Shown one piece after another: positions 19,014 through 57,868 of a stretch of 64,000 nucleotides of DNA (within the stretch, counting starts at the first letter, position 1; the number at the start of each line of letters is the position of its first letter). The DNA is taken from contig JABJEK010000097.1 of the NCBI GenBank assembly GCA_018702955.1, positions 7,631 through 71,630 of the forward strand, in the 5' to 3' direction. Source of the DNA: Rhodospirillaceae bacterium. Lineage in GTDB: Bacteria; Pseudomonadota; Alphaproteobacteria; UBA6615. The translations under genes were made by a program, and so were the position numbers. The notes beneath the pieces are model-generated. The model worked only from the letters and a program-made list of their open reading frames with translations, made no database searches and was not told the origin of the DNA.

Positions 19014-19208
19014 CTAGCGGCGACGAAGCCAGACGATTCCGGCCACGGCGCCAACCGCGAGCAGAACCAGCAAGTGGTCGACGCCCAGCACCGGGTGGCC
19101 GGCACCCGCACTGTGTTCAACTCCGGTGACATGGGCAAAGGCCGGTGCGGTCGCGGTGGTGGCGGCAAACGCAACGGCCGCGGTGAAAAACTTCTGCATC
19201 TTGATCAT
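19014..19208 (-). pseudogene. truncated hupE/ureJ-like nickel transporter remnant (N-terminal 64 aa only)
   Basis: Signal peptide plus ...FAHVTGVEHSAGAGHPVLGVDHLLVLLAVGAVAG matches the conserved N-terminal HPxxGxDHLLAMLAVG region of HupE/UreJ. The frame stops after TM1. Sequence further downstream is occupied by the C-terminus of the opposite-strand CoxL-like gene. Confidence 0.5.
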
Positions 19209-19220
19209 CCTGTTGGCTTC

Positions 19221-19870
<650 letters not shown>

Positions 19871-19874
<4 letters not shown>

Positions 19875-20578
19875 GAGCGGAACAACCTCGAATATTGGGT
19901 TTCGTGAATCGTGGAGGCCCAGTCGACCATGATGGCCGCAGAACCCATATCGTCAACCGGGCGCGCAAGCGCCGCCTCGGCGGCGGCGACAATCACAGGC
20001 TCAAGCCCCGCCAGGACATGCAGCCCGTCGCTTTGCCCGAGCGGGATGGCGCGCACACCGGCCGACACAATATTCGCGGCAAAGGCGTGCAGATAGGCTT
20101 CGAGCGCCGGCAGCTCGGGAATTCCGTGATCGGCAGCGGTAACCCCGACCGCAACCGGGTAGGCTATCTCGCGCCCCGTTTCGGCGGCGATGTCGCTCAG
20201 GCGAACGAGCCAGGGACTCGACCAATGACGGGTGGCGGCGCTGACGAACGCCGCCCCCTGGCTCAACGTCTCCAACCCCAGTTCACGCGTCGGGCGCATG
20301 GCGTCACCCCGCTCCAGCACCCAGGCCAGGCCGTCTGTATCGTCGTTGCCCACCGCGTCATATGCCGCACAAAACAAGGCCGCATCAACCCGCCCGGTGC
20401 CAGAGGAAACAATTACCTCGATCCAGGAAGACAGATCTTCGCGGTCCGTCGCCATGCCGGTGTCGACTGCGGCTTCCAGGCCGTGGGAATAGCTGAACGC
20501 CCCGACGGGAAAGGCCGGCGAGAGCCAGGTCATCAGGCGCTGCAGGCGCACGCCCGAAAGAGAACGATCAGTGGTCAT
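19871..20578 (-). CDS. ureF: urease accessory protein UreF
   Basis: UreF N-terminal signature [24 protein letters not shown]. The ATG at 20578 has GGAG six nt upstream. Stop overlaps the ureG start (ATGA). Confidence 0.8.
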
Positions 20579-21043
20579 GACCATCTCCATGACTATGGCC
20601 AGCGCCCTCGTCATAGGCGCCGGGTTCCGGATCGAACGACGCAACCTTGGCTTCAACTTCCGCGCCAAGGCGAACCAGCATCTGTGCGATCACATGATCG
20701 GCGCGAATACGCAGCGTGCCGTCATCGAGCACCTGGGTCGGGAGGTGGCGGTTGCCGATATGCCAGGCCATGCGAACCGTATCGCGCGGATCGTCGCAGC
20801 GTATGTCGAGCACTTCTTCATCGGCGGCGCGCACATGCACGATGCCACCGGTGTCCAGGCACAACCCATCGCCGTCACCCATGCGCGTGGCGTCGTCCAG
20901 GTCGAGCAGAAACGCTTCGCCCGCGTCGTCAATCAGGCGCACCCGGCGACGGTAACGGTCATCGAACGCCAGCGTCACCGTGGCGATGGCATCCGCCATC
21001 GGCCAGCTTCCCGCCGCAATGACCTCGGTTGCGCGGCGCAGGG

Positions 21044-21047
<4 letters not shown>
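20568..21047 (-). CDS. ureE: urease accessory protein UreE
   Basis: UreE core [15 protein letters not shown] and short His-rich tail [12 protein letters not shown] start overlaps the ureC stop (TTGA). Confidence 0.8.
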
Positions 21048-22753
<1,706 letters not shown>

Positions 22754-22756
22754 CGG

Positions 22757-23068
22757 CTAACTCTCCAGCGCGCCGTTGACGCGGCCGTTGAAACCGAACA
22801 CGCGGCCCGACCCGGCGTAGCGCACGAGGGCGACCTCGCGGGTCTGGCCGGGTTCGAACCGCACCGCGGTGCCGGCGGGAATATCCAGCCGGAATCCGCG
22901 CGCCGCATCCCGGTCGAATTCCAGCGCGCCGTTGGTCTCGTGAAAATGAAAATGGGAGCCGACCTGTATCGGCCGGTCGCCGCTGTTGGCCACCGACAGG
23001 GCCAGTGTCTCGCGACCCTCGTTCAGAATGATGTCGCCGTCGGCGGGGAAGAGTTCACCTGGGATCAT
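22757..23068 (-). CDS. ureB: urease beta subunit
   Basis: [19 protein letters not shown]...[11 protein letters not shown] is a classic UreB sequence. The track ORF extends upstream into ureA; the ATG at 23068 is used. Confidence 0.9.
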
Positions 23069-23075
23069 GTCTGCC

Positions 23076-23378
23076 TCAGCGGATCGGGTTGTGGACGGTG
23101 ACCAGCTTGGTCCCATCGGGAAACGTCGCCTCGACCTGGACGTCGTGGATCATCTCCGCGATCCCGTCCATCACATCCGCGCGGGTCAGCACCTCACCTC
23201 CCGCGCTCATCAGGTCGGCCACCGAACGTCCGTCACGCGCGCCCTCGACGACGTAGTCGGAGATCAGCGCGATCGCCTCGGGATAGTTGAGCTTCACGCC
23301 GCGCGCCATGCGCTTGCGCGCCACCTCGGCGGCCAATGCGACGAGGAGCTTGTCCTTCTCTCTCGGGGTCAGATGCAT
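23076..23378 (-). CDS. ureA: urease gamma subunit
   Basis: [23 protein letters not shown]...[14 protein letters not shown] is the canonical UreA. Confidence 0.9.
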
Positions 23379-23389
23379 TCTCTATCCTC

Positions 23390-24214
23390 TTAAATCGCCC
23401 ACAGGCGCGGCATCGCCGACGGCAGATCAGCCACGTGATGCCGGAATTCGGCCCAGAATTTTCCATAGGCGTCACGCAGACGCCGGGCATCGCGGTCGAG
23501 CCAACGCACGACCAATACATCCCCCACGCAAGTGGCACCGACGCACAGCCCAACCGGATCCAAACCTTCAGGCAGCAACTCGCGAGCCAGCGGCAGAGCG
23601 GACGACGCGTCGTCGCTCACAAAGACGATGCTGGCGAACGCCCGCGCCCCATTCAGGCCAGCATTGGCCGCGAGGGTCTGTGGGAAGTTATCGTCCAGGT
23701 GTACTGCATCCGCCCAGATCAGCCGGTCGTCACGCCGCACATCCCACGCCTCATGGATGAGCCCGCCGGTGACGCTTTCGCCCATGGCCGTACGCCCGAG
23801 CACAATGATCTCCCCGGCCAGAACCCGCGCGCCTGGCGCAGCCTCAACGACCGTCCGCCGGCGCAGCCGCGCTGTATCGAAGATGATGGTTTCCTGGGGC
23901 AGCCATTCGAGCCAGCTGCCCGGCGCGGCAACGAGTGACATATCGATGCGCACATCCGCGCCCGTCGAGCGATAAATCTTCTCGGCCGCCTGGCCCACGA
24001 TCCGTCCCACCGCCCCCGCACCGCACCTGATCTCGATCGTCAGGTCGTCGCCGCCGACCAGGCCGCCGGATGTCGTCACCAGCGTCCCGGTTTCAGGCTC
24101 TCCCGGGCCGGAATTCGGAAACAGAATACGCAACGGATCGCTCTGGTACAGATGCGCCAGGCGGGTGCGACCGCCAGCGTCAACGAACTCGATCTCTGCC
24201 CGCCCCGATGCCAT
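23390..24214 (-). CDS. ureD: urease accessory protein UreD
   Basis: 274 aa. Position and UreD-like N-terminus (...RLAHLYQSDPLRILFP...). Confidence 0.8.
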   Translation of the reverse strand: MASGRAEIEFVDAGGRTRLAHLYQSDPLRILFPNSGPGEPETGTLVTTSGGLVGGDDLTIEIRCGAGAVGRIVGQAAEKIYRSTGADVRIDMSLVAAPGSWLEWLPQETIIFDTARLRRRTVVEAAPGARVLAGEIIVLGRTAMGESVTGGLIHEAWDVRRDDRLIWADAVHLDDNFPQTLAANAGLNGARAFASIVFVSDDASSALPLARELLPEGLDPVGLCVGATCVGDVLVVRWLDRDARRLRDAYGKFWAEFRHHVADLPSAMPRLWAI

Positions 24215-24234: not shown

Positions 24235-24930
24235 TTAAACCGTAAGGTGCCGACGAATCTCGGATTCGGGCAAATCACCGATCGGTCCGGAAAGGACAAT
24301 CTCACCCCGATCCATCACCGCCACGTCGTCGGCCAGATCACGCGCGAATTCGTAATATTGCTCGACCAGCAGGATCGCCATGTCGCCGCTGCCGGCAAGT
24401 AGCCGAATGACCGCCTCGATATCCTTGATGATCGACGGCTGGATGCCCTCGGTGGGCTCATCGAGGACCAGCAGCTTTGGCTGAGTCACGAGCGCGCGGC
24501 CGATCGCAAGCTGCTGTTGCTGGCCGCCGGACAAATCTCCGCCGCGGCGTTGCAACATATCCGACAGGACAGGAAACAGCTCGAACACCTGGTCGGGAAT
24601 ACGGGCCTCGCTGCGCGGCAGGCAGGCAAAACCGGTCATCAAATTTTCCTCGACGCTGAGCCGGGGGAATACATCGCGCCCCTGGGGCACATAGGCGATG
24701 CCGCGCCGGGCACGCGCGAAGGGCGGCAGGCGAGCAATATCCTCACCATCCCACATCACCGACCCGCTACGGATCGGGGTATGCCCCGTCAGGCCACGCA
24801 GGAGTGACGTCTTGCCGACCCCGTTGCGCCCGAGAAGACAGGTGATCTTGCCACGCGTGGCCGCAATATCGGCACCCCGCAGAATGTGGCTGGCGCCGTA
24901 GTAAAGATTGATATCGGTAGCTTCGAGCAT
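24235..24930 (-). CDS. urtE: urea ABC transporter ATP-binding protein UrtE
   Basis: Walker A GRNGVGKTS, signature LSGGQQQ, Walker B LLVLDEP. 231 aa. Last gene of the urt block. Confidence 0.9.
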   Translation of the reverse strand: MLEATDINLYYGASHILRGADIAATRGKITCLLGRNGVGKTSLLRGLTGHTPIRSGSVMWDGEDIARLPPFARARRGIAYVPQGRDVFPRLSVEENLMTGFACLPRSEARIPDQVFELFPVLSDMLQRRGGDLSGGQQQQLAIGRALVTQPKLLVLDEPTEGIQPSIIKDIEAVIRLLAGSGDMAILLVEQYYEFARDLADDVAVMDRGEIVLSGPIGDLPESEIRRHLTV

Positions 24931-24932
24931 GG

Positions 24933-25712
24933 TCAGCGACCCAGATAGACTTCAATTACGCGCGGATCGGACTGGACGGTGTCCATCGGGCCTTCCGCAA
25001 GAACGCTGCCCTCATGCAGCACCGAGACCGTACAATCGAGATTTCGCACAAACTCCATGTCATGCTCGACAACGACCAGCGAATGGTCCTTCGCGATCTC
25101 CATGAGCAAGGTCACGGTCTGTTCGGTTTCGGCGTCGCTCATGCCGGCCACGGGCTCATCGAGCAGCATCAACTCGGGCTCCTGTGCCAACAGCATGCCG
25201 ATTTCGAGCCACTGCTTCTGGCCGTGGCTGAGATCACCGGCCAGATCCTCACGCCGCTCGGTCAGTCGGATCGTTTCCAACGTGGCCTCGATCCGTGTGA
25301 GTTGTTCGCCGCGAATACGCGCAAACAACGTCTCGGCGATCGACCGCTTGGTCTTCTGCGCCAGGTAAATATTTTCGAACACCGTCAGGCTCTCGAACAC
25401 CGTCGGCTTCTGAAACTTCCGGCCGATCCCCAGATTGGCGATATCGGTCTCATCGAGATGGGTGAGGTTCACATCGTCGGCAAACAGCACACGTCCCGTG
25501 TCCGGGCGAGTCTTGCCGGTGACCACATCCATCATCGTGGTCTTGCCCGCCCCGTTGGGGCCGATGATCGCGCGCATCTCGCCACGCCGTATGATCAGGT
25601 TCAGGCTGTTCAGTGCCTTGAAGCCGTCGAAGCTGACCGACACACCTTCGAGATAGAGGATCGACGGTTCACGCGCGGTCATGGCGTCCGGCCCGGTGGT
25701 GGGTTCAGGCAT
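24933..25712 (-). CDS. urtD: urea ABC transporter ATP-binding protein UrtD
   Basis: ILYLEGVSVSFDGFKALNSLNL...GPNGAGKTT is UrtD-specific. Start is uncertain: ATG at 25712 overlaps urtC by 8 nt, or ATG at 25682. Confidence 0.85.
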   Translation of the reverse strand: MPEPTTGPDAMTAREPSILYLEGVSVSFDGFKALNSLNLIIRRGEMRAIIGPNGAGKTTMMDVVTGKTRPDTGRVLFADDVNLTHLDETDIANLGIGRKFQKPTVFESLTVFENIYLAQKTKRSIAETLFARIRGEQLTRIEATLETIRLTERREDLAGDLSHGQKQWLEIGMLLAQEPELMLLDEPVAGMSDAETEQTVTLLMEIAKDHSLVVVEHDMEFVRNLDCTVSVLHEGSVLAEGPMDTVQSDPRVIEVYLGR

Positions 25713-26847
25713 CGACACGTCGCAGCCTCCGTCGAATCGCGTCGAACAGTTCGCCCGAGCGCAGTGATTTGTAGACCCCGACAATCCCGTTGGGCATGAC
25801 CAGGGTCACGAGAATGAACAGCGTGCCCAGGAAAAACAGCCAAACTTCCGGGGCCGCGGCGGTGAAGTATGTTCGCGTACCGTTGACGGCGAATGCCCCG
25901 ATGATGGCGCCAAACAACGTGCCGCGCCCCCCGACAGCCACCCATATCGCCATCTCGATGGATTTGGCCGGCGCGAATTCGCCCGGGTTGATGATGCCGA
26001 CCTGGGGCACATAAAGAGCCCCGGCCAGACCGGCGAGCATCGCCGACAGCGTGAACACGAAGAGCTTTGCATTGGTGACCGAATAACCGAGAAACCGGAC
26101 CCGGTTCTCCGCGTCGCGCACGGCGATCAACAACCGGCCGAGTTTCGAGCTCACCACCGCGCGGCAGATGAAATAGACGATCAGGAGCGACACCGCCGTG
26201 GCGACGTAGAGTCCGACCTTGGTCGTTTCGCGCGACAGTTCGAAGCCCAGGATGTCCTTGAAATCCGTTAGCCCGTTGTTGCCGCCGAAACCCATCTCGT
26301 TGCGGAAAAAGGCGAGCATGAAGGCATAGACCATCGCCTGGCTGATGATCGAGAAATAGACGCCCGTGATCCGCGAGCGAAACGCGAGCCAACCGAAGAC
26401 GAACCCCAAGGCACCCGGCACGGCCAGCACCATGACGGCGGCGAACCAAAACTGGTCGAACCCAAGCCAGTACCAGGGGACTGAATCCCAGTTCAGGAAG
26501 ACCATGAAGTCAGGCAGGTCCGGGTTGCCATAAACGCCCCGCTCGCCGACCTGGCGCATCATGTACATGCCCATGGCATAGCCGCCGAGACCGAAGAACG
26601 CCCCATGGCCAAGGCTCAGGATGCCCGCATAGCCCCAGATCAGGTCGAGCGACAGGGCGAGGATCGCAAACGCCAGATACTTGCCCAGGGTGGTCACCCA
26701 GAAGGTCGGGATGTGGAACAGCGAGCCTTCGGGGACCGCCAGATTGAGGATCGGCACCACGAATATCGCGATCACCGCGAGTGTGAGGATGGCCGCCCAG
26801 CTCCGTTTGCTTTCCATAGCGATAAGCCGTGATGAGATCGGTCCCAT
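25705..26847 (-). CDS. urtC: urea ABC transporter permease UrtC
   Basis: 380-aa branched-chain-type permease, 10 TM. Sits between urtB and urtD. Confidence 0.85.
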   Translation of the reverse strand: MGPISSRLIAMESKRSWAAILTLAVIAIFVVPILNLAVPEGSLFHIPTFWVTTLGKYLAFAILALSLDLIWGYAGILSLGHGAFFGLGGYAMGMYMMRQVGERGVYGNPDLPDFMVFLNWDSVPWYWLGFDQFWFAAVMVLAVPGALGFVFGWLAFRSRITGVYFSIISQAMVYAFMLAFFRNEMGFGGNNGLTDFKDILGFELSRETTKVGLYVATAVSLLIVYFICRAVVSSKLGRLLIAVRDAENRVRFLGYSVTNAKLFVFTLSAMLAGLAGALYVPQVGIINPGEFAPAKSIEMAIWVAVGGRGTLFGAIIGAFAVNGTRTYFTAAAPEVWLFFLGTLFILVTLVMPNGIVGVYKSLRSGELFDAIRRRLRRVDA

Positions 26848-26862: not shown

Positions 26863-28560
26863 TCAGGATTCGGCCGCGCGCCCTTTGAGGGCGAACAGAC
26901 CGCGTGGGCGTTTCTGGATAAACAGGATAATGAGCACGAGCACGATCACCTTGCCGAGGATCGCGCCGGAGACCGGCTCGAGGAATTTGTTGACGATACC
27001 GAGGCTGAATGCCCCGACGATTGTGCCCCAAATGCTCCCGACACCGCCGAAGACGACCACCATGAAGCTGTCGACGATGAAGTTCTGGCCCAGATTGGGG
27101 CTGACATTCGAAATTTGGCTCAGGGCCACCCCGGCCACGCCGGCAATGCCGGAGCCCAGCGCGAAGGTCAGCGCATCCACCCGTCCGGTGCGAATGCCCA
27201 TTGCCGAGGCCATACCCCGGTTCTGGGTCACGGCGCGCATCTGCAGCCCGAACCGGCTGTAACGGATGAACGCCGCCAGCGCGGCCACGACCATGATGCA
27301 GAATATGATGATGTAGATACGGTTGACGGTCACGGACACGCCGCCGCCAAACGCGACCGCACCGGAGATCCAGTCAGGGTTTGCGACCTCACGGTTGTTC
27401 GCCCCGAACAGCGTACGTACGAGCTGCTGCAGGATGAGGCTCACACCCCATGTGGCGAGTAGGGTCTCCAGCGGACGGCCATAGAGGAAACGAATGCAAC
27501 CGCGTTCGATCAGCACACCGAACGCGGCGGCCACAATGAAGGCCGCAGGGATGGACACCAGCACATACATGCCGAAGATTTCCGGCGGCATCGTGGACCG
27601 GAATATCTCCTGAACGATGAAGGTCGTGTAGGCCCCGAGCATGATCATCTCGCCATGGGCCATGTTGATGACGCCCATGACGCCGAACGTGATCGCCAGG
27701 CCGATCGCGGCGAGCAAAAGCACCGAGCCGAGGCTGAGGCCGAAGATCAAATTCTCCGCCAGACCAAACAGCGCGAGGCGGTCGTCGATATCGTCCACCG
27801 CTTCGCGTAATGCCGTGCGCACCTCCGCATCGGGTTCGACCGCGTCACCATCAACTTCGAGGAGACGCTGTTCGAGCGCCGATTTGATATCCGGGTCGCT
27901 GCGGTCCGCGAGCGTGGCCACCGCCGCCAGGCGCAACGCACGATCGTCCGACGCGAGCTCGAACACAGCGATACCCGTCTCAAGCGTCTCGCGGATTTTC
28001 GAAACCGTCTCGCGGTCGCGCGCCCGCTTCAGCAGGGCCAGCGCATCGTCGGGCGGGCTGGCGATGACATTGCGCGCCGCCTCGAGCCGCTCGTCTGCGT
28101 CGGGGCTGAACAGCGCGAGCTGTCCGAGGACACCGCGAATCTGGCCGCGCAGCTTGTTGTTTGCGATGATCTTCTTGATCTCGCGGCTGGTGGCCGTGCC
28201 CGCAGGTTCACCGGTGACCGGGCTGGTCAGTTTGAAACCATCCCCGGCGCGATCGGCAATGATGACGATCTTGTCGGCCTTATGACGGTACAGGCGCCCG
28301 TCGGCAAATGCCTGAAGAACGGCGATAGCGCGCTCGTCGCCCAGAGCACCCAGTGCATCGACGGCCGTCGCCTTGTCGGAAAACTTGCGCGCGTCCAGCG
28401 CCTGGACCGCAGCGGCGAAGGGATCAGCCGCGGTCGGTACAGATTGTGCGGCAGCGGGCAGCGTAACCGCTACCAGAAGCGCCAGAAACAGCAACGCACC
28501 GCCAACAAAGGCAATGATGCGGTGTGGGCGCACTGCGCCCATTGAATGGCCCGTAGCCAT
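26863..28560 (-). CDS. urtB: urea ABC transporter permease UrtB with approx. 270-aa N-terminal periplasmic extension
   Basis: 565 aa. C-terminal about 290 aa is a LivH-type permease. The N-terminus has a signal/TM segment, then a helical Ala/Asp/Arg-rich domain. Confidence 0.8.
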   Translation of the reverse strand: MATGHSMGAVRPHRIIAFVGGALLFLALLVAVTLPAAAQSVPTAADPFAAAVQALDARKFSDKATAVDALGALGDERAIAVLQAFADGRLYRHKADKIVIIADRAGDGFKLTSPVTGEPAGTATSREIKKIIANNKLRGQIRGVLGQLALFSPDADERLEAARNVIASPPDDALALLKRARDRETVSKIRETLETGIAVFELASDDRALRLAAVATLADRSDPDIKSALEQRLLEVDGDAVEPDAEVRTALREAVDDIDDRLALFGLAENLIFGLSLGSVLLLAAIGLAITFGVMGVINMAHGEMIMLGAYTTFIVQEIFRSTMPPEIFGMYVLVSIPAAFIVAAAFGVLIERGCIRFLYGRPLETLLATWGVSLILQQLVRTLFGANNREVANPDWISGAVAFGGGVSVTVNRIYIIIFCIMVVAALAAFIRYSRFGLQMRAVTQNRGMASAMGIRTGRVDALTFALGSGIAGVAGVALSQISNVSPNLGQNFIVDSFMVVVFGGVGSIWGTIVGAFSLGIVNKFLEPVSGAILGKVIVLVLIILFIQKRPRGLFALKGRAAES

Positions 28561-28616
28561 AAGAAACCGTCCCGATTTTGCGTTTGGATTTATTATTTAT
28601 TATTTGGGACCAACAC

Positions 28617-28646
28617 CGGCCGCCCCGGAAACACTGGGGGCGGCCG
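28617..28646 (-). promoter_or_regulatory. intercistronic GC stem-loop between urtA and urtB (10-bp perfect stem)
   Basis: cggccgcccc-(10 nt)-ggggcggccg. Lies immediately 3' of urtA, before urtB. An AT-rich tract (tttattatttattattt) follows on the transcribed strand. Confidence 0.55.
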
Positions 28647-28661
28647 ACATCGGGTACGCAC

Positions 28662-29945
28662 TTAGTTGGTCAGGTATTTCGGCTTCTCGCAGTTGCCGCA
28701 GACCCAGGGGTAGGTCCAGTCGGCGGTGAGCTTGGCGCTTTCGGGAATGAAGTCGCTCCAGGCATCACCCACGACCACACCGTCGGTTTCCCACACGGTG
28801 GCGAACTGGCCGTCATCCTGGATCTCGCCGATGAGTACCGGCTTCGAGAGATGATGGTTGGTGTTCATCACGGCGACACCGCCCGTCAGGTTCGGCACTT
28901 CCTGGCCGTACATGGCCTGGCGAACCGCATCAACGCTCGTGGAACCCGCCTGCTCGACCGCCTGGGCCCACATGTTGAAGCCGATATAATGGGCTTCCAT
29001 CGGGTCATTGAAGACGCGCTTGTCGCTGCCGATGAAGTCGTGCCACTTCGAGATCAGCGCGTCATTCTCCGGCGCATCAACGCTCATGAAGTAGTTCCAA
29101 GCTGCCAGATGGCCGACGAGCGGTCCGGTGTCGATGCCGGCAAGTTCTTCCTCACCAACCGAGAAGGCGACGACCGGAATGTCTTCCGCCTTGATGCCTT
29201 GGTTCGCGAGCTCCTTGTAGAACGGCACATTCGCGTCACCGTTGATCGTCGAGACCACGGCCGTCTTTTTGCCCGCTGCGGCGAACTTCTTGATGTCCGA
29301 CACGATGGTCTGCCAGTCGGAATGACCGAACGGCGTATAGTTGACCATGATGTCTTCGGCCGGGACGCCCTTGGCCTTGAGAAAGGCTTCGAGGATCTTG
29401 TTGGTCGTGCGCGGATACACATAGTCGGTACCCGCGAGGACCCAACGCTTGGCCTCACCGCCATCTTCGCTCATCAGATACTCGACGGCGGGGATGGCCT
29501 GCTGGTTCGGCGCGGCGCCCGTGTAGAAGATATTGCGCGAGGATTCTTCACCCTCATACTGGACCGGATAGAAGAGCATCCCGTTCAGTTCTTCGAAGAC
29601 CGGCAGGACCGACTTGCGCGACACCGAGGTCCAGTTGCCGAACACGACATCGACCTTGTGCTGCTCGATCAGCTCACGCGCTTTCTCGGCGAACAGCGGC
29701 CAGTCGGATGCGGGATCGACGACAACCGCCTCGATCTGCTTGCCGAGCAATCCGCCTTTCTTGTTCTGCTCGTCGATCAGAAACAGCATGACGTCCTTCA
29801 GCGCGGTTTCGCTGATGGCCATGGTTCCGGACAGGGAGTGAAGGATCCCCACCTTGATGGTGTCGGCAGCCTGCGCCGACGCGCTCATTGCGAGCGAACC
29901 TGCAAGCACGCTCGCCGCTGCGATGGTTTTTAGGCTCTTGAACAT
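28662..29945 (-). CDS. urtA: urea ABC transporter substrate-binding protein UrtA
   Basis: Signal peptide. UrtA-type sequence IKVGILHSLSGTMAISE...VDVVFGNWTSVSRK. 427 aa. Confidence 0.9.
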   Translation of the reverse strand: MFKSLKTIAAASVLAGSLAMSASAQAADTIKVGILHSLSGTMAISETALKDVMLFLIDEQNKKGGLLGKQIEAVVVDPASDWPLFAEKARELIEQHKVDVVFGNWTSVSRKSVLPVFEELNGMLFYPVQYEGEESSRNIFYTGAAPNQQAIPAVEYLMSEDGGEAKRWVLAGTDYVYPRTTNKILEAFLKAKGVPAEDIMVNYTPFGHSDWQTIVSDIKKFAAAGKKTAVVSTINGDANVPFYKELANQGIKAEDIPVVAFSVGEEELAGIDTGPLVGHLAAWNYFMSVDAPENDALISKWHDFIGSDKRVFNDPMEAHYIGFNMWAQAVEQAGSTSVDAVRQAMYGQEVPNLTGGVAVMNTNHHLSKPVLIGEIQDDGQFATVWETDGVVVGDAWSDFIPESAKLTADWTYPWVCGNCEKPKYLTN

Positions 29946-29987
29946 TCTCCGCCTCCGGGCTTTGTGGTTTTGCGATGCAACCTAATT

Positions 29988-30003
29988 AGCAAAGCGCGTG
30001 CCA
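29988..30003 (-). promoter_or_regulatory. sigma-54 (-24/-12) promoter for the urt-ure block
   Basis: The minus strand reads TGGCACGcgctTTGCT, an exact match to TGGCACG-N4-TTGCW. Placed about 45 nt upstream of the urtA ATG; GGAGG RBS lies between. Confidence 0.6.
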
Positions 30004-30226
30004 GACGGATCACGAGACGTTACGCGCTGTTATTGCTCGATATTTTCTCCCGGAAAGACGATCGCCGCATTTTTAGTCACAAAAATTGGTTAAATAATAA
30101 TCAGTGAAATTCTTTTGCTCAAATATTAGGCGATTTTTACGCCAACATGCTCAAGTCCTCTGTGTTGACGGTTGCCCGAGGCCGGAAATCCGGGCACGCT
30201 TTGACCTTCAACCGGAGAAGATATCC

Positions 30227-30658
30227 ATGCAGATTCTGACGGGAAGCTGTCATTGCGGGAACATCGGCGTTTCCTTTGCAACCGATTTACCCTCCGCAGA
30301 TATGGTCCCCCGTGCCTGCCAGTGCTCGTTCTGCCGCCTGCATTCGAGCGCAGCCGTGTCGGACCCGGCCGGGCACATCACGTTTACTGTGCACGAACCC
30401 GAACATTTGAACCGCTACACCTTCGGACTGGGCAGCACGGAGTTTCTGATTTGCCAAACCTGCGGCGTCTATGCGGGCGCGTTCATGCCCGACGGTGAAA
30501 ACGCCTACGCGAACGTCATGGCAGGGATACTCGACGCGCGGGCCGAGATATCGAGCCCACCTATCCCGGTCCATCGGGCACAGGAGAATCTGGAGGAACG
30601 ACGCACGCGGCGGCGCGCAATGTGGACCCCGGCGACCCTGGTTCAGGAGTCGCGGTAG
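30227..30658 (+). CDS. GFA (glutathione-dependent formaldehyde-activating / CENP-V) family protein
   Basis: CxC...CxxC zinc motifs GSCHCGNIGV and CQCSFCRLH. ATG at 30227 with a GGAGAAG RBS. The upstream part of the track ORF lacks a start context. Confidence 0.7.
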   Translation: MQILTGSCHCGNIGVSFATDLPSADMVPRACQCSFCRLHSSAAVSDPAGHITFTVHEPEHLNRYTFGLGSTEFLICQTCGVYAGAFMPDGENAYANVMAGILDARAEISSPPIPVHRAQENLEERRTRRRAMWTPATLVQESR

Positions 30659-30697
30659 CGCAGGCGGTTGGCGAAGCGAAACCGGGCGACCAGCACC

Positions 30698-31546
30698 CTA
30701 ATCGTTTTTCTCAACTGCCCCAGCGACGGCGAGAATGTGCTGCGCCGCCACGACCACCGGGTTATCGATCATTTCACCGTCGACGGTCGCGATGCCACCC
30801 TTGGCAGCCTCCGATGCGGCGACGATCCGCCGCGCACGCGCAACCTCTTCTTCGCTCGGTGCAAAAACGGCGTGAATCACGCTCACCTGGCGCGGATGGA
30901 TCGCGATCTTTCCATCAAATCCCATGCTGCGGACAAGTTCGGTATCCCCGCGCAGACCGTCATCATCCTTGAAATCCGGCCAGATACCGTCGATCGCCGC
31001 AATGCCGGCCTGCCCGGCCGCCGCGGCAATCCGGCCACGCCCATAGGCCAGAGCAGCGACGCTCATGTCGCTCCCCAACTCGGCCGCATAATCGGCGGAC
31101 CCGAACCCCACCGCGACATTGCGAAGAACCGAACCGGCTATCTCCGCAACGCGATCCAGGCCTTCCGCCGATTCAACAACGGGTATCAGGTCGATGTCCT
31201 TGTCAGCAGACGACAACAAACCATCGAGCCAGCGCATCTCTTCGCCGCTCGACGCCTTGGGGATAAACAATGCGTCCGGCGCAGCCTCGCTTGACAGAAG
31301 GGCAAGTAAATCATGCAGGCCCAACTCTGTGCGCGGGCTGTTGATGCGCAAAACCCAGCGCGGACCGGCCGGCAGCGATCCCGCGAGATATTCCAGCGCC
31401 GTGGCGCGGGCCGCCGCCTTGTCGTCCAGCGCAACCGCATCCTCGAGATCGATACAAACCATATCGGCGCCCGCAGCTGCGGCCTTCTCGAATCGGTCGG
31501 GGCGGGTCGCAGGAACAAACAACAAGCTTCGCCAGAGGGTACTCAT
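30698..31546 (-). CDS. HpcH/HpaI aldolase / citrate-lyase beta (CitE) family protein
   Basis: N-terminus RSLLFVPATRPDRFEKA. Central Asp/Glu metal-site regions. AAGGA RBS before the ATG at 31546. Confidence 0.75.
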   Translation of the reverse strand: MSTLWRSLLFVPATRPDRFEKAAAAGADMVCIDLEDAVALDDKAAARATALEYLAGSLPAGPRWVLRINSPRTELGLHDLLALLSSEAAPDALFIPKASSGEEMRWLDGLLSSADKDIDLIPVVESAEGLDRVAEIAGSVLRNVAVGFGSADYAAELGSDMSVAALAYGRGRIAAAAGQAGIAAIDGIWPDFKDDDGLRGDTELVRSMGFDGKIAIHPRQVSVIHAVFAPSEEEVARARRIVAASEAAKGGIATVDGEMIDNPVVVAAQHILAVAGAVEKND

Positions 31547-45557: not shown

Positions 45558-45685
45558 CTTGCGGGCCCCGTTTGTTTGTCGCGCGATCCGGAAACGAATC
45601 CGCGCGCGCCGGAGTCTAACCGCTCGCACATATGGAACCAATCCCCGCCCGCCTGCGCTAGAATGGGCGAACAAGGAGCAATGTT

Positions 45686-46657
45686 ATGGCCACCGAGATC
45701 GACCCCACACGCCGGCTCATTCTTCTCACCGTGAAGGAGAATGTCAGCCTGACCGCACTCGATGCCGAGACCGGCGACACCGTCGCCTGCATCAAGGTGG
45801 GCACCCTGAACAAAAGCAAACCCCATGAACTCGCGGTGTCCGCCGACGGCACGCGCGCCTTCGTGTCCCTCTATGGCAGTGCCGACTACGGCCCCAACGT
45901 GCCGGACAACCGGATCGCCGTGGTCGACCTCACCGACATGACCCTCATCGGGCATATCGACCTCAATCTCTACAAGGGCCCCCACGCGCTGGTCGTCGAC
46001 CGGGACGGAAACCTGTGGGCGACGGTCGACGGCAGCCGTTGCGTCCTGGTGATCGATACCGACAGCTACGAGATCGTCCAGACGATCTGGCTCCAGACCC
46101 CGGGGCATTTCCTCGCCGCCACGCCCGACGGCAAGACGCTCTATGCCTCGTCCAAGGAATATCCGGTGATCACCGAGATCGACATCGAAAGTCGGTCGAT
46201 CACCGCGCAAATCGCCGTGCCGGTGGGCGCACAGGCGATCCGGGTGTCCCAGGACGGATCGCAATTGTTCGTGGGCGATTTTCATCGCCCGCTGTTGCAT
46301 GTGATCGACTGCGCCGCGCGGGAACTGATCAGCACCCACGCATTGACGGGCGTGCCCGGTTGGCCTTTCGTTTCACCCGACGGGCAGACACTGGTCGTCA
46401 GCACCTATGACGAGCCCAACGACAAGGGTTACGTCGAGATCCTCGACGCGAACGATCTCGACTCTCGCCGGGTCGTGGACGTCGCGGACGAGCCGTTCCA
46501 TGTGCTGTTCAGCGATGACGGAAAGCATCTCCATGCCGCGCTGGGCAATGGCGAGGTGCCGCGGATCGACGTGGCCAAGGCCGAAATCGTCGATGGCGCC
46601 TATCACGCCGGCGGCACCATGCCCGAAGCGATTGTCGCGTATGATCCGGTCGGCTGA
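45686..46657 (+). CDS. YVTN-family beta-propeller repeat protein (lactonase-like)
   Basis: Repeated approx. 40-aa units of the form DGxxLYV/DxxxxxVxVID. AAGGAG RBS. Confidence 0.65.
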   Translation: MATEIDPTRRLILLTVKENVSLTALDAETGDTVACIKVGTLNKSKPHELAVSADGTRAFVSLYGSADYGPNVPDNRIAVVDLTDMTLIGHIDLNLYKGPHALVVDRDGNLWATVDGSRCVLVIDTDSYEIVQTIWLQTPGHFLAATPDGKTLYASSKEYPVITEIDIESRSITAQIAVPVGAQAIRVSQDGSQLFVGDFHRPLLHVIDCAARELISTHALTGVPGWPFVSPDGQTLVVSTYDEPNDKGYVEILDANDLDSRRVVDVADEPFHVLFSDDGKHLHAALGNGEVPRIDVAKAEIVDGAYHAGGTMPEAIVAYDPVG

Positions 46658-49185: not shown

Positions 49186-49736
49186 CTCTTTGCCATTTCG
49201 TCGGCGAGGTCTGACGACCATTCCGCGCGGGGCCGGTAGCCCTCGGTCGCCTTGCACAGCTCTTCGGTCAGCTTGATGATCTCGTCGTCCGACAGGTCGA
49301 ATTCGAGATACTCGCCGAAGGGCTGGGGCACGTGGAAGGGCGAATCCAGATAGACCTCGATATTGTTGCCCTCGGGGTCGTCGAAATAGACCGACCAGGC
49401 GTTGCCGTGGTTGCGCGGCAGGAGGTTCTCGACGCCCTCGTCCACCACCCGCCGGTACATCACCCGCAATTCGCCCAGGGATTTCACCCTGAACGACAGC
49501 TGGTTGATCGTGCTGGGCACGTCGTCGGGCCGACCGCTCGCCAATATTACCTGATGATGCATCGCGGGATCGTTGGACATGAAGGTGATGTGTCCGTTGT
49601 AACGCTCGACGAACCCACGATCCGTCACGGTGAAACCAAGAATGCGGGTGTAGAAATCGGCCATTCGGTCGGTATCGCGCACCCACATGCCCGCATGGGA
49701 GAGTTGTGGTTTGATCTGGTCTGTCATGTCGTTCAT
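49182..49736 (-). CDS. VOC (glyoxalase/bleomycin-resistance/dioxygenase) family protein
   Basis: 184 aa with two beta-alpha-beta-beta-beta modules (HAGMWVRD...; EGNNIEVYLD). Stop overlaps the lactonase-like metallo-hydrolase stop by 4 nt (convergent). Confidence 0.7.
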   Translation of the reverse strand: MNDMTDQIKPQLSHAGMWVRDTDRMADFYTRILGFTVTDRGFVERYNGHITFMSNDPAMHHQVILASGRPDDVPSTINQLSFRVKSLGELRVMYRRVVDEGVENLLPRNHGNAWSVYFDDPEGNNIEVYLDSPFHVPQPFGEYLEFDLSDDEIIKLTEELCKATEGYRPRAEWSSDLADEMAKS

Positions 49737-50938
49737 CCCTCCGATGCCACGACGCCGCTGTCCTGCAGCGCCGCGATCTGTTCTGCGTCGTAGCCGATAT
49801 CACCGAGAATCTCGGCCGTGTGTTCACCGACTTCCGGCGGTGCGACCGCGAACGAACTCGGCGTTCGCGACAAAGATACCGGCTGGCGTGCAAAGCGCAT
49901 CTCGCCCAGCGCCGGGGACGTCAGCGGTTGGGCGATGCCCAGATGCTGGACCTGGGGGTCGTCGAAGACCTGGCCGATGTCGTTGATCGGCCCGCAAGGC
50001 ACGCCCGCCGCGTTGAACTTCTCGACCCACCCGGCCGACGTATCGGTTGCGATCGCTTCGCCGATCAACCGGTTCAGCCGGTCGCGGTTTTCCGAGCGCC
50101 CGGGTGCGTCCTCGAACTCCGGGTCCGTCATCCATTCCTCATGGCTGAGGATACGGCAGAACCGCCCCCAGATTTCCTGACCCGCAACCGCGATGTTGAT
50201 GTGCCCGTCCGACGTGGCGAACACGCCGGTCGGAATGCTTGTCGGATGGTTGTTCCCGGCCTGCCCCGGAACGTCCTCGTCGACCAGCCAGCGCGCCGAT
50301 TGGAAATCGAGCATGAATATCTGCGCCTCGAGCAGCGACGTCTGGAGCCACTGGCCCTTGCCGGATTTATCGCGCTCGAGCAGCGCCAGCAGGATACCCT
50401 GGGCCGCAAACAGCCCGGCCGTCAGATCCGCGATCGGAATGCCGACCCGCATCGGGCCCTCGCCCGGTGCGCCCGTGATGGACATCAGCCCGCCCATGCC
50501 CTGGGCGATCTGGTCGAAGCCCGGCCGCTTGGCATAGGGCCCGTCCTGGCCGAAGCCCGAGATGCTCGCGAGGATGATCCGCGGATTGATCGCCGCGAGT
50601 GATTCATAGTCGATGCCCAGGCGGTTCTTCACGTCGGGCCGGTAATTCTCGACCACCACATCGGCGTTCGCGACGAGCTTGCGAAACACCTCCTTGCCCG
50701 CCTCGGCCTTGAGGTCGAGCGCGAGGGACCGCTTGTTGCGGTGCAGGTTCTGGAAATCCGAGCCATGGCGTGATCCGCCGAGTGCGGCACCGCCTTCGAC
50801 GGCGGGCGGCATCTCGACCTTGATAACATCGGCCCCCCAATCGGCGAGCTGACGCACACAAGTCGGGCCTGAACGGACACGGGTCAGATCGAGGACCTTT
50901 ACATGGTCGAGGACCGCGGCGGCGGGATGGTGAGGCAT
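49733..50938 (-). CDS. CoA-transferase family III (CaiB/BaiF) protein
   Basis: VKVLDLTRVRSGPTCVRQLADWGADVIKVE...VENYRP...catalytic Asp region. Confidence 0.85.
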   Translation of the reverse strand: MPHHPAAAVLDHVKVLDLTRVRSGPTCVRQLADWGADVIKVEMPPAVEGGAALGGSRHGSDFQNLHRNKRSLALDLKAEAGKEVFRKLVANADVVVENYRPDVKNRLGIDYESLAAINPRIILASISGFGQDGPYAKRPGFDQIAQGMGGLMSITGAPGEGPMRVGIPIADLTAGLFAAQGILLALLERDKSGKGQWLQTSLLEAQIFMLDFQSARWLVDEDVPGQAGNNHPTSIPTGVFATSDGHINIAVAGQEIWGRFCRILSHEEWMTDPEFEDAPGRSENRDRLNRLIGEAIATDTSAGWVEKFNAAGVPCGPINDIGQVFDDPQVQHLGIAQPLTSPALGEMRFARQPVSLSRTPSSFAVAPPEVGEHTAEILGDIGYDAEQIAALQDSGVVASEG

Positions 50939-50964
50939 GATTTCTCTCTACGTCGGTGTTTTGA

Positions 50965-51930
50965 CTAAAGCTTGAGCAGGCGCTTGGCGTTTCCGTTCAG
51001 GATCTTCGCCTTGTCTTCGGCGTTCAGGTGCACCCGCTCGATCCAGTCCATCCCCGGCGCGTTGGGCACAAAAGGATAATCGACGGAGAACAGAATCCGG
51101 TCGGCACCCATCTCGGCGATCGAGCACATCAGGGCCGGATCGGAGAAATTGCCGCTGGTCGTGATGTGGAAGTTGCGGCTGAACACCTCGCGGAACGACA
51201 GGGACTTGTTGCCCGGCCGCGACAGCGCGTGGTCGATCCGCCAGAGCAGGAACGGCAATCCCTCGCCGAGATGGCCGAGGATGATGTTGCAGTCCGGATA
51301 CTTCTCCAGCACCCCGCTCAGGACGATACGAATCCCCTGGGTCGCGGTCTCGACCGTGAAGCCCCAGCCGGCGTTCAGCAGTGCGGGGAAATCCTTCACA
51401 TAGGGCTCGTAATAGGTGTCGACGACGGTCTTGTTCGGGACGGCGGGATGCATATACAGCGGCACGCCGAGGGCCTGGGCCCGCTCGAAGACCGGCCAGA
51501 AGCGCTCGTCGTCGAAGAACACGCCATGGGTCAGCCCATGAATCATCGCGCCCTTGAAGCCCAGTTCGTTGACGCAACGCGAGAGCTCGTCGGCGCAGGC
51601 ATCCGGATCGGGCGTGGGCAGGTTCGCGAAGGCCGCAAACCGGTCCGGTCGCTGGGCGACGATATCGCGCAGCCTGTCGTTGGTGGCGCGGGTCACCTCC
51701 GCCGCTGTGGCCGGCTCGAGCCGCTGTGTCGACGGCGCGCCATGAGACAGGACCTGAATATCGACGCCCGTGGCGTCCATCTCCGCAATCCGCGCATCGA
51801 ACAAATCCTCCAGCTTGGTCTGCATCACGCCGGACCCACCCCGGTCTTCCTCCGCGACATGCGCCGTCAGCTCCGGATCCCAGTAATGCTCTTCGATCGC
51901 GATGACCTGTTCGCCGTTCGACGTCGCCAT
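50965..51930 (-). CDS. amidohydrolase-2 family (ACMSD-like decarboxylase/hydratase)
   Basis: Internal ATG (MATSNGEQVIAIEEHY) with a GGGGGAGAG RBS. IEEHY...HGL...DYPF metal-site pattern of the PF04909 family. Confidence 0.75.
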   Translation of the reverse strand: MATSNGEQVIAIEEHYWDPELTAHVAEEDRGGSGVMQTKLEDLFDARIAEMDATGVDIQVLSHGAPSTQRLEPATAAEVTRATNDRLRDIVAQRPDRFAAFANLPTPDPDACADELSRCVNELGFKGAMIHGLTHGVFFDDERFWPVFERAQALGVPLYMHPAVPNKTVVDTYYEPYVKDFPALLNAGWGFTVETATQGIRIVLSGVLEKYPDCNIILGHLGEGLPFLLWRIDHALSRPGNKSLSFREVFSRNFHITTSGNFSDPALMCSIAEMGADRILFSVDYPFVPNAPGMDWIERVHLNAEDKAKILNGNAKRLLKL

Positions 51931-57709: not shown

Positions 57710-57868
57710 CGTGGGCCCCCTCTTTGCCTATGAATTAGATTGTTCTTGCTTGTGTGTATGCCACACAATTACGTCCACTATAGCACAAATCAAGCCTCCA
57801 GGCTGCAACTGCGCGACCTGCGAAATTGGTAAAACTGCCGTGATCGGGCGCGATCAGGCGCCAGATTT

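Follow-up and report, generated by a model that had tools for sequence, protein, structure and literature searches.

A conserved sigma-54-type promoter and paired NtrC-type sites upstream of a urea uptake and urease gene cluster in an uncultured alphaproteobacterium

Introduction

The window examined here, a 64-kb (64,000-nucleotide) stretch of contig JABJEK010000097.1 from a Rhodospirillaceae bacterium (assembly GCA_018702955.1), carries on its minus strand the genes urtA-B-C-D-E for the uptake of urea and ureD-A-B-C-E-F-G for its hydrolysis, followed by a small UreJ-like open reading frame (ORF). Upstream of urtA, and before a divergently oriented gene of the GFA family that begins at about position 30228, lies an intergenic region with two kinds of conserved elements: a sequence that has the form of a -24/-12 promoter recognised by sigma-54 (RpoN), and, further upstream, a pair of dyad-symmetric sites resembling those bound by the activator NtrC. 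By analogy with known systems, we hold with good confidence that a sigma-54 promoter serves urtA, is activated by NtrC and drives the urt-ure cluster. The nearest relatives of this UrtA, at up to 99% identity, come from uncultured Alphaproteobacteria, namely metagenome-assembled genomes (MAGs) of the Rhodospirillaceae, Kiloniellaceae and Minwuia type.

A sigma-54 promoter element upstream of urtA

The element, TGGCACGcgctTTGCT (29988..30003, minus strand), matches the sigma-54 consensus TGGCACG-N4-TTGCW at all 12 of its specified positions, the minus strand reading TGGCACGCGCTTTGCT from 30003 to 29988. The -24 GG and the -12 GC are spaced by exactly 10 nt, the element is oriented toward urtA, and 42 nt separate it from the urtA start codon (ATG at 29945). 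An exact TGGCAC-N5-TTGCW occurs once in the window, compared with 0.05 occurrences expected from shuffled sequence, while versions with a single mismatch are found twice with 1.66 expected; the exact match alone stands out. Placed from the -12 GC at 29990/29989, the transcription start site (TSS) is predicted near 29977, which would give a 5′ untranslated region (5′-UTR) of ~32 nt (29946..29977, minus strand) with a putative ribosome-binding site (RBS), GGAGGCGGAG, inside it. This 5′-UTR is almost identical in two close relatives (loci L081 and L150), and a scan of the whole window with Rfam found no riboswitch or leader within it.

The conservation of the element was assessed in orthologous urtA loci from Alpha- and Gammaproteobacteria, 80 of which were fetched, one genome per species, at 72-87% UrtA identity. 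Scoring required GG-N10-GC, counted matches over the 12 consensus positions and applied a cut-off of ≥10/12 in the interval from -150 to -25. Elements of this quality were present on the urtA strand in 35 of 73 loci, compared with none of 73 on the opposite strand and two of 73 in coding sequence of equal length. Among the orthologous loci the usual distance from the 3′ end of the element to the ATG downstream is 38-62 nt, a range that includes the ~42 nt seen in the window. The very same 16-mer recurs in a Tara Oceans Rhodospirillaceae MAG (L008) and in a Kiloniellaceae MAG (L003), and in an alignment of the upstream regions of closer relatives the TGGC..G..TTGC columns are invariant.

The promoter goes beyond chance because its position is conserved in 35 of 73 urtA loci and in none on the opposite strand. 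The notion that the motif is a chance match devoid of function could draw on the one-mismatch versions, which occur at chance frequency. It is, however, effectively refuted by the rarity of the exact match, by its correct position and direction relative to the RBS and the ATG that follow it, by its conservation across Alpha- and Gammaproteobacteria in the face of an empty opposite-strand control, and by the conserved dyads alongside it. Judged from sequence and conservation, positions 30003..29988 are a sigma-54 promoter, a conserved feature of urtA rather than an accident of sequence. A first-pass annotation had called such a promoter before urtA on the minus strand from the letters of the window, and that call was correct: the consensus match is complete, the exact match is single, and its position is kept in about half of the 73 loci.

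Two other GG-N10-GC matches on the minus strand were considered and set aside. One, TGGCTCGCGAGTTGCT, lies inside ureD (23589..23574), where the GG is not kept in five relatives, and is attributed to chance; the other, TGGCCATAACATTGCT (45692..45677), adjoins an acyl-CoA dehydrogenase gene, has no accompanying dyads and is likely a chance match as well.

Paired dyads at enhancer distance

A direct pattern search for activator sites fails because the enteric NtrC consensus is absent upstream of urtA, and footprinting was used instead. Closer relatives with 84-97% UrtA identity were obtained by exact-protein look-ups, and their upstream regions were aligned. The neighbouring upstream genes differ between these genomes (a GFA gene, a 2OG-Fe(II) oxygenase or a molybdo-enzyme cluster); despite this, two blocks are kept in all aligned relatives, the -24/-12 element and a pair of 17-bp dyads. 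The consensus of the relatives' dyads is TGCCTAAAAATTAGGCA, with the TGC-N11-GCA frame that is typical of NtrC sites. In the window, the distal dyad is CGCCTAATATTTGAGCA (30116..30132, minus strand), centred 121 nt upstream of the first T of TGGCAC or about -147 from the predicted TSS, and the proximal dyad is TGATTATTATTTAACCA (30087..30103, minus strand), centred 92 nt upstream of TGGCAC or about -118. Their spacing of 29 nt corresponds to roughly three turns of the helix. The first-pass annotation had proposed a search for NtrC-type sites upstream of the promoter, and the two dyads, at 30132..30116 and 30103..30087, are sites of this type in that stretch.

In a position weight matrix (PWM) built from 18 dyads of the relatives only, with the sites of the window excluded, the proximal dyad scores 21.1 bits and the distal dyad 19.3 bits, ranking first and second among 63,984 positions of the window. 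When the intergenic region was simulated at matched composition, a best site this good arose with P=0.0002, and not one of 5000 Markov simulations gave a pair of comparable quality and spacing. Outside the loci that contributed to the matrix, 19 of 35 sigma-54-positive loci have one or more dyads that score at least 12 bits and whose centre lies 70-170 nt ahead of the -24 box; a coding control of equal length gave 0 matches. In independent loci the pairs are often 28-31 nt apart, with offsets much like those of the window (120/91 in L011, 122/93 in L061 and 123/93 in L073; the distal offset is also shared by L081). In the very close relative L150 the synteny is the same and the promoter and 5′-UTR are near-identical; the spacer has strongly diverged, and both dyad frames remain in register. 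Gammaproteobacterial urtA promoters have classical TGCACC..GGTGCA sites at comparable offsets instead.

Both dyads fall inside an AT-rich tract (30140..30060) with 30% GC, compared with 63% for the window and 47% for the intergenic region as a whole. The suggestion that this tract could be an enhancer or a binding region for integration host factor (IHF) is supported as regards the enhancer and not supported as regards IHF, the best IHF match in the window having two mismatches, which is the most frequent outcome in shuffled sequence. An IHF-type box is otherwise common at this kind of promoter: WATCAR-N4-TTR is perfect in 15 of 51 distinct urtA promoter (PurtA) regions where 0.3 would be expected, and has one mismatch in a further 16 where 5.1 would be expected. 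The usual distance from its centre to TGGCAC downstream is 23 nt, as in L090 (AATCAGTGACTTA), L092 and L073. The homologous position in the window (30020..30032, minus strand) reads TAACAGCGCGTAA, a degenerate version with two mismatches, and the box is degenerate in the closest relatives L081 and L150, too.

Elsewhere in the window, TGCTCAAGCTTTAGTCA (50962-50978, 13.4 bits) takes third place among the matches to the dyad matrix. It precedes a family-III CoA-transferase gene (49733-50938, minus strand) by ~24 nt, and no sigma-54 element was found near it. Another high match (57725-57741) sits beside a hydrolase gene, likewise without a sigma-54 element.

Association with nitrogen-regulated genes and identity of the activator

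In order to see which genes this architecture precedes, metagenomes were scanned for TGGCAC-N5-TTGC combined with two loose dyads (TG-N3-A-N5-T-N3-CA) that are 10-14 nt apart and lie 70-100 nt upstream. The scan yielded at least 120 stretches, which were ranked with the matrix trained on urtA promoters and reduced to distinct regions. Among the matches listed, 24 of the 46 distinct high-scoring regions precede a gene for a PII/GlnK protein of ~112 aa and seven precede UrtA-type genes; none of the 51 distinct low-scoring regions precedes a PII gene. Pfam searches with downstream proteins of the matches listed identified P-II in five of five tested, as well as AmtB, GltB, NIR_SIR (nirA), allophanate hydrolase (atzF) and, several times, Peripla_BP_5. 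Going by these domains, the set of genes downstream of a sigma-54 element with two dyads is the canonical Ntr regulon. It is important to point out that this evidence is drawn from metagenome contigs of other organisms and not from the genome to which the window belongs. Seven marine contigs with a GC content of ~32-35% (L112, L134, L153, L172, L191, L194 and L200) have the two dyads, at 23-26 bits, together with the sigma-54 element before glnK. The enhancer consensus therefore holds in lineages of alphaproteobacterial type that differ widely in base composition.

Within ~1.3 Mb of collected sequence, the combination of a sigma-54 element and a dyad was found at urtA promoters and in a single other place. 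That place is in the Kiloniellaceae MAG L003, where the 16-mer identical to that of the window (L003:891-906) occurs with one dyad 5 kb upstream of urtA and not at urtA itself. The genes headed by this promoter, which extend down to 5932 and all precede urtA, encode a binding protein of the NMT1 type, a permease and a urea-producing ureohydrolase of the arginase family; the layout suggests an extended operon that first makes and then uses urea.

The dyads of the window are best read as NtrC sites, because the same dyads precede Ntr genes and match the footprinted frame of Sinorhizobium (S.) meliloti. The NtrC site of that organism, established by electrophoretic mobility shift assay (EMSA) and DNase footprinting, is TGC-N11-GCA with an A/T-rich centre and also occurs at glnII promoters (PMC10746234). 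A regulog of NtrC that includes ure and urt genes has moreover been predicted by comparative genomics in several proteobacterial orders (PMC5343134). The proposal that control is of the NtrC type and sigma-54 dependent is supported by two conserved dyads at the classical enhancer distance and by the same architecture before glnK, amtB, gltB, nirA and atzF.

Several observations weigh against this reading. The dyads of the window deviate from a strict TGC...GCA, reading CGC...GCA and TGA...CCA (five and four of the six triplet positions), and the enteric TGCACC-N5-GGTGCA, with up to three mismatches allowed, has no match in 29946-30700, the window having fewer matches than shuffled versions of it. 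A six-frame signature search found no ntrC, rpoN or GAFTGA-type activator encoded in the 64-kb window, and the IHF-type box is degenerate in the window. Finally, the NtrC of some Alphaproteobacteria (Rhodobacterales, Caulobacter) is devoid of the GAFTGA motif and acts with sigma-70 (bioRxiv 10.1101/2023.06.06.543975).

Two alternatives take up these points. In one, the promoter is a sigma-54 promoter and the dyads bind a different bacterial enhancer-binding protein (bEBP), either one specific for urea or organic nitrogen or an NtrX- or NifA-like protein. The regulator is indeed not in the window, the dyads do differ from the enteric NtrC consensus, and a NifA-type upstream activating sequence, TGT-N10-ACA, can be found at 30263..30248. 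The latter was rejected as a candidate site, lying inside the divergent GFA coding sequence and not being kept in L150. The same dyads with the same spacing occur, among the matches listed, before the core Ntr genes glnK, amtB, gltB and nirA; the TGC-N11-GCA frame with its A/T-rich centre is that of the footprinted S. meliloti site; and gammaproteobacterial urtA promoters place classical TGCACC..GGTGCA sites at comparable offsets. Binding by another activator is therefore improbable, and NtrC is the preferred candidate.

The other alternative places a sigma-70-type start within the AT-rich tract (TTGAGC-17-TATTAT, 30122..30094), with NtrC as a sigma-70 activator in the manner of Rhodobacter and TGGCAC-N5-TTGC as an incidental sequence. 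It can point to a 9/12 sigma-70-like match on the urtA strand and to the existence of sigma-70-dependent NtrC in some Alphaproteobacteria. Both hexamers, however, are parts of the two dyads, and sigma-70-like matches occur at chance level; the -24/-12 element is invariant in relatives while the spacer diverges, and its position is conserved in 35 of 73 loci. A Rhodobacterales locus of the comparison (L028) has no sigma-54 element, consistent with an NtrC of the sigma-70 type and just as that mechanism would lead one to expect, whereas the clade of the window has one. We regard a sigma-70 start as very improbable indeed, and less probable than a different activator acting on a sigma-54 promoter.

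The urt-ure gene cluster

All genes of the cluster lie on the minus strand, and matches to NCBIfam and Pfam models bear out the order first read from the sequence, urtA-B-C-D-E, ureD-A-B-C-E-F-G and a ureJ-like ORF. urtA (28662..29945; TIGR03407, 573.6 bits) is followed by the permease genes urtB (26863..28560; 565 aa, TIGR03409 over residues 269-561) and urtC (25705..26847; TIGR03408, 443.6 bits), and by the ATPase genes urtD (24933..25718; TIGR03411) and urtE (24235..24930; TIGR03410). The likely start of urtD is either GTG 25718 or ATG 25712, and it overlaps the end of urtC. The urease part begins with ureD (23390..24214; Pfam UreD), 20 nt past the urtE stop, and continues with the genes for the gamma subunit, ureA (23076..23378; NF009712), the beta subunit, ureB (22757..23068; NF009682 from residue 17 of a longer ORF, with the start at ATG 23068), and the alpha subunit, ureC (21044..22753; NF009686, 1062 bits). 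The accessory genes are ureE (20568..21047; UreE NCBIfam models), ureF (19871..20614; Pfam UreF, overlapping ureE and with an approximate start) and ureG (19221..19874; TIGR00101).

After refinement of the start codons, the junctions amount to 101 nt for urtA-urtB, 15 nt for urtB-urtC, an overlap for urtC-urtD and 2 nt for urtD-urtE, followed by 20 nt for urtE-ureD, 11 nt for ureD-ureA, 7 nt for ureA-ureB and 3 nt for ureB-ureC. ureC-ureE, ureE-ureF and ureF-ureG overlap, and 21 nt separate ureG from the last ORF. The first-pass annotation had seen no other promoter-sized gap between 29945 and 19014; this does not stand, as the 101 nt between the urtA stop (28662) and the urtB ATG (28560) form such a gap.

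Two features of the cluster can be recorded in passing. UrtB has an N-terminal extension of ~265 aa with faint hints of HEAT repeats, and the extension is common to its relatives (555-560 aa). Within ureC lies the sole match in the window that reaches the Rfam gathering score, 5_ureB_sRNA (RF02514, 85 bits; 22312-22601, plus strand), antisense to codons ~51-147. This family represents the cis-antisense RNA of the urease large-subunit gene of Helicobacter (H.) pylori. The match probably reflects conservation of the coding sequence; no sigma-70-like promoter was found upstream of it on the plus strand.

A hairpin after urtA

Directly after the urtA stop, in the 101-nt gap before urtB, lies a GC-rich hairpin with a 17-bp stem and a 10-nt loop (28610..28653, minus strand). 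It has a predicted dG of -31 kcal/mol and a z-score of -3.3, and none of 200 shuffled sequences was as stable. The U-run that would make it an intrinsic terminator is absent; the tail reads CAAAUAAUAAAU. Hairpins occupy this position in relatives as well, and their stems differ in sequence. With MAFFT and RNAalifold the hairpins in the urtA-urtB gaps could not be aligned and 0 pairs were predicted, and each sequence was then folded separately in a survey of z-scores. In 87 distinct loci the 80 nt after the urtA stop have a median z of -3.1, with z<-2 in 72% of the loci compared with 4% in a coding control. A U-run, counted as five or more U among the first 8 nt past the stem, is present in six of the 87; L008 and L011 are examples in which the hairpin makes a canonical terminator. 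Overall, the hairpin after urtA is near-universal, with the structure kept and the sequence not, in both Alpha- and Gammaproteobacteria. The hairpin of the window probably attenuates transcription or stabilises messenger RNA and would so raise the ratio of UrtA to the permease, a role that fits better than that of a full terminator.

One transcript or several

Co-transcription of all 13 genes is the most likely model, which we favour with moderate confidence from the arrangement of the genes. The 13 genes stand in the same complete order in relatives that have other neighbours on either flank, and urtE is directly followed by ureD in 35 GTDB species-level loci of Alpha- and Gammaproteobacteria, so that a fusion of urt and ure is a widespread arrangement. 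In none of 43 distinct lineages was a further sigma-54 element found between urtE and ureD, even where the gap exceeds 80 nt, and sigma-70-like matches within the urt-ure block of the window are at chance level, with three observed and 2.6 expected from shuffles.

Two further points belong on the other side of the scales. The conserved strong hairpin after urtA punctuates the urt-ure unit, and a weak sigma-70-like match is present in ureF. Because of these, the urease genes need not depend entirely on the urtA promoter. A rival model follows this line: a real promoter that works chiefly for urtA or urtABCDE, with most transcripts ending at the hairpin and the ure genes expressed from internal sigma-70-type promoters within coding sequence. 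Besides the strength of the hairpin in 72% of 87 loci and the U-run terminators in a few of them, such as L008 and L011, this model has in its favour that ure and urt genes are unlinked or otherwise ordered in many other bacteria, that the urtE-ureD gap exceeds 80 nt in 15 of 43 lineages, and that a sequence matching the sigma-70 type at 9/12 positions precedes ureG by 55 nt. Set against this, the hairpin of the window has no U-tract, neighbouring genes from urtB onwards either overlap or are at most 21 nt apart, the gene order holds in relatives whose flanks are different, the sigma-70-like matches of the block are not above shuffles, and expression of urt and ure alike is lost in rpoN mutants of Bradyrhizobium. 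A promoter restricted mainly to urtA or urtABCDE is the most serious of the alternatives but still unlikely, and a single transcript of the whole cluster is the model we prefer.

A conserved mini-UreJ

The last ORF of the cluster encodes a protein of 61 aa (19014..19199, minus strand; ATG 19199 to stop 19014) that aligns with positions 3-49 of the 179 in the Pfam model HupE_UreJ (PF04955). It lacks the polytopic architecture, the ~180-190 aa and the whole PF04955 domain of a HupE/UreJ permease. The first-pass annotation had called it a ureJ remnant; the relationship to UreJ is upheld, but the ORF is not a remnant. Proteins of 61-63 aa are kept after ureG in four relatives (L084, L088, L090 and L092), in which the downstream gene differs, and they share an invariant pattern: a signal peptide ending in AFA|H, the motif H-x-TGV-x-H...G..H..G-x-DH, one transmembrane (TM) helix and a basic C-terminus. 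The ratio of non-synonymous to synonymous substitution (dN/dS) is 0.08-0.48 in pairwise comparisons, with synonymous sites near saturation. A search of 1.84 billion representative proteins returned seven significant matches, six of them 59-63 aa long and one a full-length protein of 192 aa. Because it is conserved in length among relatives, has a low dN/dS and has homologues of ~60 aa, mini-UreJ is, on sequence criteria, a small gene under purifying selection and not debris.

With the nickel permeases of the HupE/UreJ type it shares a signal peptide followed by an N-terminal His, the HP..G.DH motif, the first TM helix and the location in a urease cluster. It differs from them in having ~60 aa and one TM helix where the permeases have ~180-190 aa and about six, and it is no permease on its own; rather, it belongs to a small family of 59-63-aa proteins apart from the full-length ones. 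In domains that are attached to HupE/UreJ-2 permeases, an N-terminal His that becomes exposed once the signal peptide is cleaved off has been documented as a means of chelating metal (PMC12537917). By analogy, this suggests a nickel-related role for mini-UreJ, which may be a membrane-anchored nickel-binding micro-protein. Although it stands outside the finding proper, no other feature of the locus is as unusual, and it would be worth a test for nickel binding.

A model of urt-ure expression

A mechanism can be proposed by analogy with promoters of the glnAp2 type. Under nitrogen limitation, phosphorylated NtrC would bind to the two tandem 17-bp dyads, whose centres lie ~118 and ~147 nt upstream of the predicted TSS. 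The activator would then oligomerise, contact the closed complex of the sigma-54 holoenzyme by looping of the DNA and, using ATP, open the complex. Transcription would start near 29977 and produce a message with a 5′-UTR of ~32 nt and a strong RBS. urtA would be read first, and the hairpin past its stop codon, being without a U-tract, would probably stabilise a short urtA message or terminate it in part, resulting in an excess of the binding protein. Read-through would carry transcription into urtBCDE, ureDABCEFG and the 61-aa UreJ-derived gene.

A wider and frankly tentative picture may be drawn for a clade of uncultured marine and soil Alphaproteobacteria. Urea uptake, urease and the handling of nickel might be fused into one unit under NtrC and sigma-54, within which a stem-loop after urtA, without a U-tract, would set the ratio of the binding protein to the membrane components, and in which an undescribed single-pass HupE/UreJ derivative of 59-63 aa would expose an N-terminal His and capture nickel for the maturation of urease. 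We think this picture possible but rather doubtful as a whole.

Comparison with known systems

The arrangement upstream of urtA resembles that of glnAp2-type promoters in its two 17-bp sites of dyad symmetry, which are spaced by about three turns of the helix and lie ~110-150 nt upstream of a sigma-54 promoter. In E. coli, the NtrC sites of glnAp2 lie at about -140 and -108. The half-sites in the window differ from those of glnAp2 and S. meliloti in being TGCCTA/TAGGCA-like, with degenerate copies (CGC..GCA and TGA..CCA), and the target is urea uptake and hydrolysis, whereas that of glnAp2 is glutamine synthetase. The same difference in the half-sites separates the window from the gammaproteobacterial loci of the comparison, which have enteric TGCACC..GGTGCA sites where the consensus here is TGCCTAA-N3-TTAGGCA.

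Among Alphaproteobacteria, the ureDABC genes of Rhodobacter (R.) capsulatus are reportedly under NtrC control (work attributed to Masepohl et al. 2001), which would make it, like the organism studied here, an alphaproteobacterium with urea utilisation in the Ntr system. The two differ in mechanism: NtrC of R. capsulatus depends on sigma-70 (PMC5343134; bioRxiv 10.1101/2023.06.06.543975); it has no GAFTGA motif, and there is no -24/-12 element, while the window has a perfect sigma-54 element. Bradyrhizobium sp. DOA9, also an alphaproteobacterium, has a predicted sigma-54 box, TGGCATGGTTCTTGC, upstream of urtA, and both urtA-D and ureA-D are strongly down in its rpoN mutants (PMC13207237). It belongs to the Rhizobiales, its promoter lies 77 nt upstream, and that account does not speak of a single 13-gene unit formed by ure and urt (PMC13207237).

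The closest parallel for the promoter itself is PurtA of Pseudomonas (P.) putida KT2440 (PP_4841). In a published account that cites Hervas et al. 2008/2009, it is a sigma-54/NtrC promoter that is induced when good nitrogen sources are lacking, drives urtABCDE and serves as a nitrogen biosensor (PMC8050072). As in the window, its sigma-54 -24/-12 promoter is located directly upstream of urtA; unlike in the window, the urease genes of P. putida (ureD, PP_2842) are found at another locus, without an urt-ure fusion.

The control of urtA by sigma-54 and NtrC was thus already known, and the window provides a further instance of it in an uncultured alphaproteobacterium, one that is real but ordinary. 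That an uncultured bacterium resembling the Rhodospirillales would scavenge urea under classical Ntr control matters little beyond annotation. What the locus adds to the known systems is modest: the near-universal hairpin after urtA, the conserved mini-UreJ and, as a by-product of the analysis, an alphaproteobacterial NtrC enhancer consensus, TGCCTAA-N3-TTAGGCA, with two sites 29 nt apart and ~75-100 nt upstream of TGGCAC, which predicts promoters of the Ntr regulon in metagenomes.

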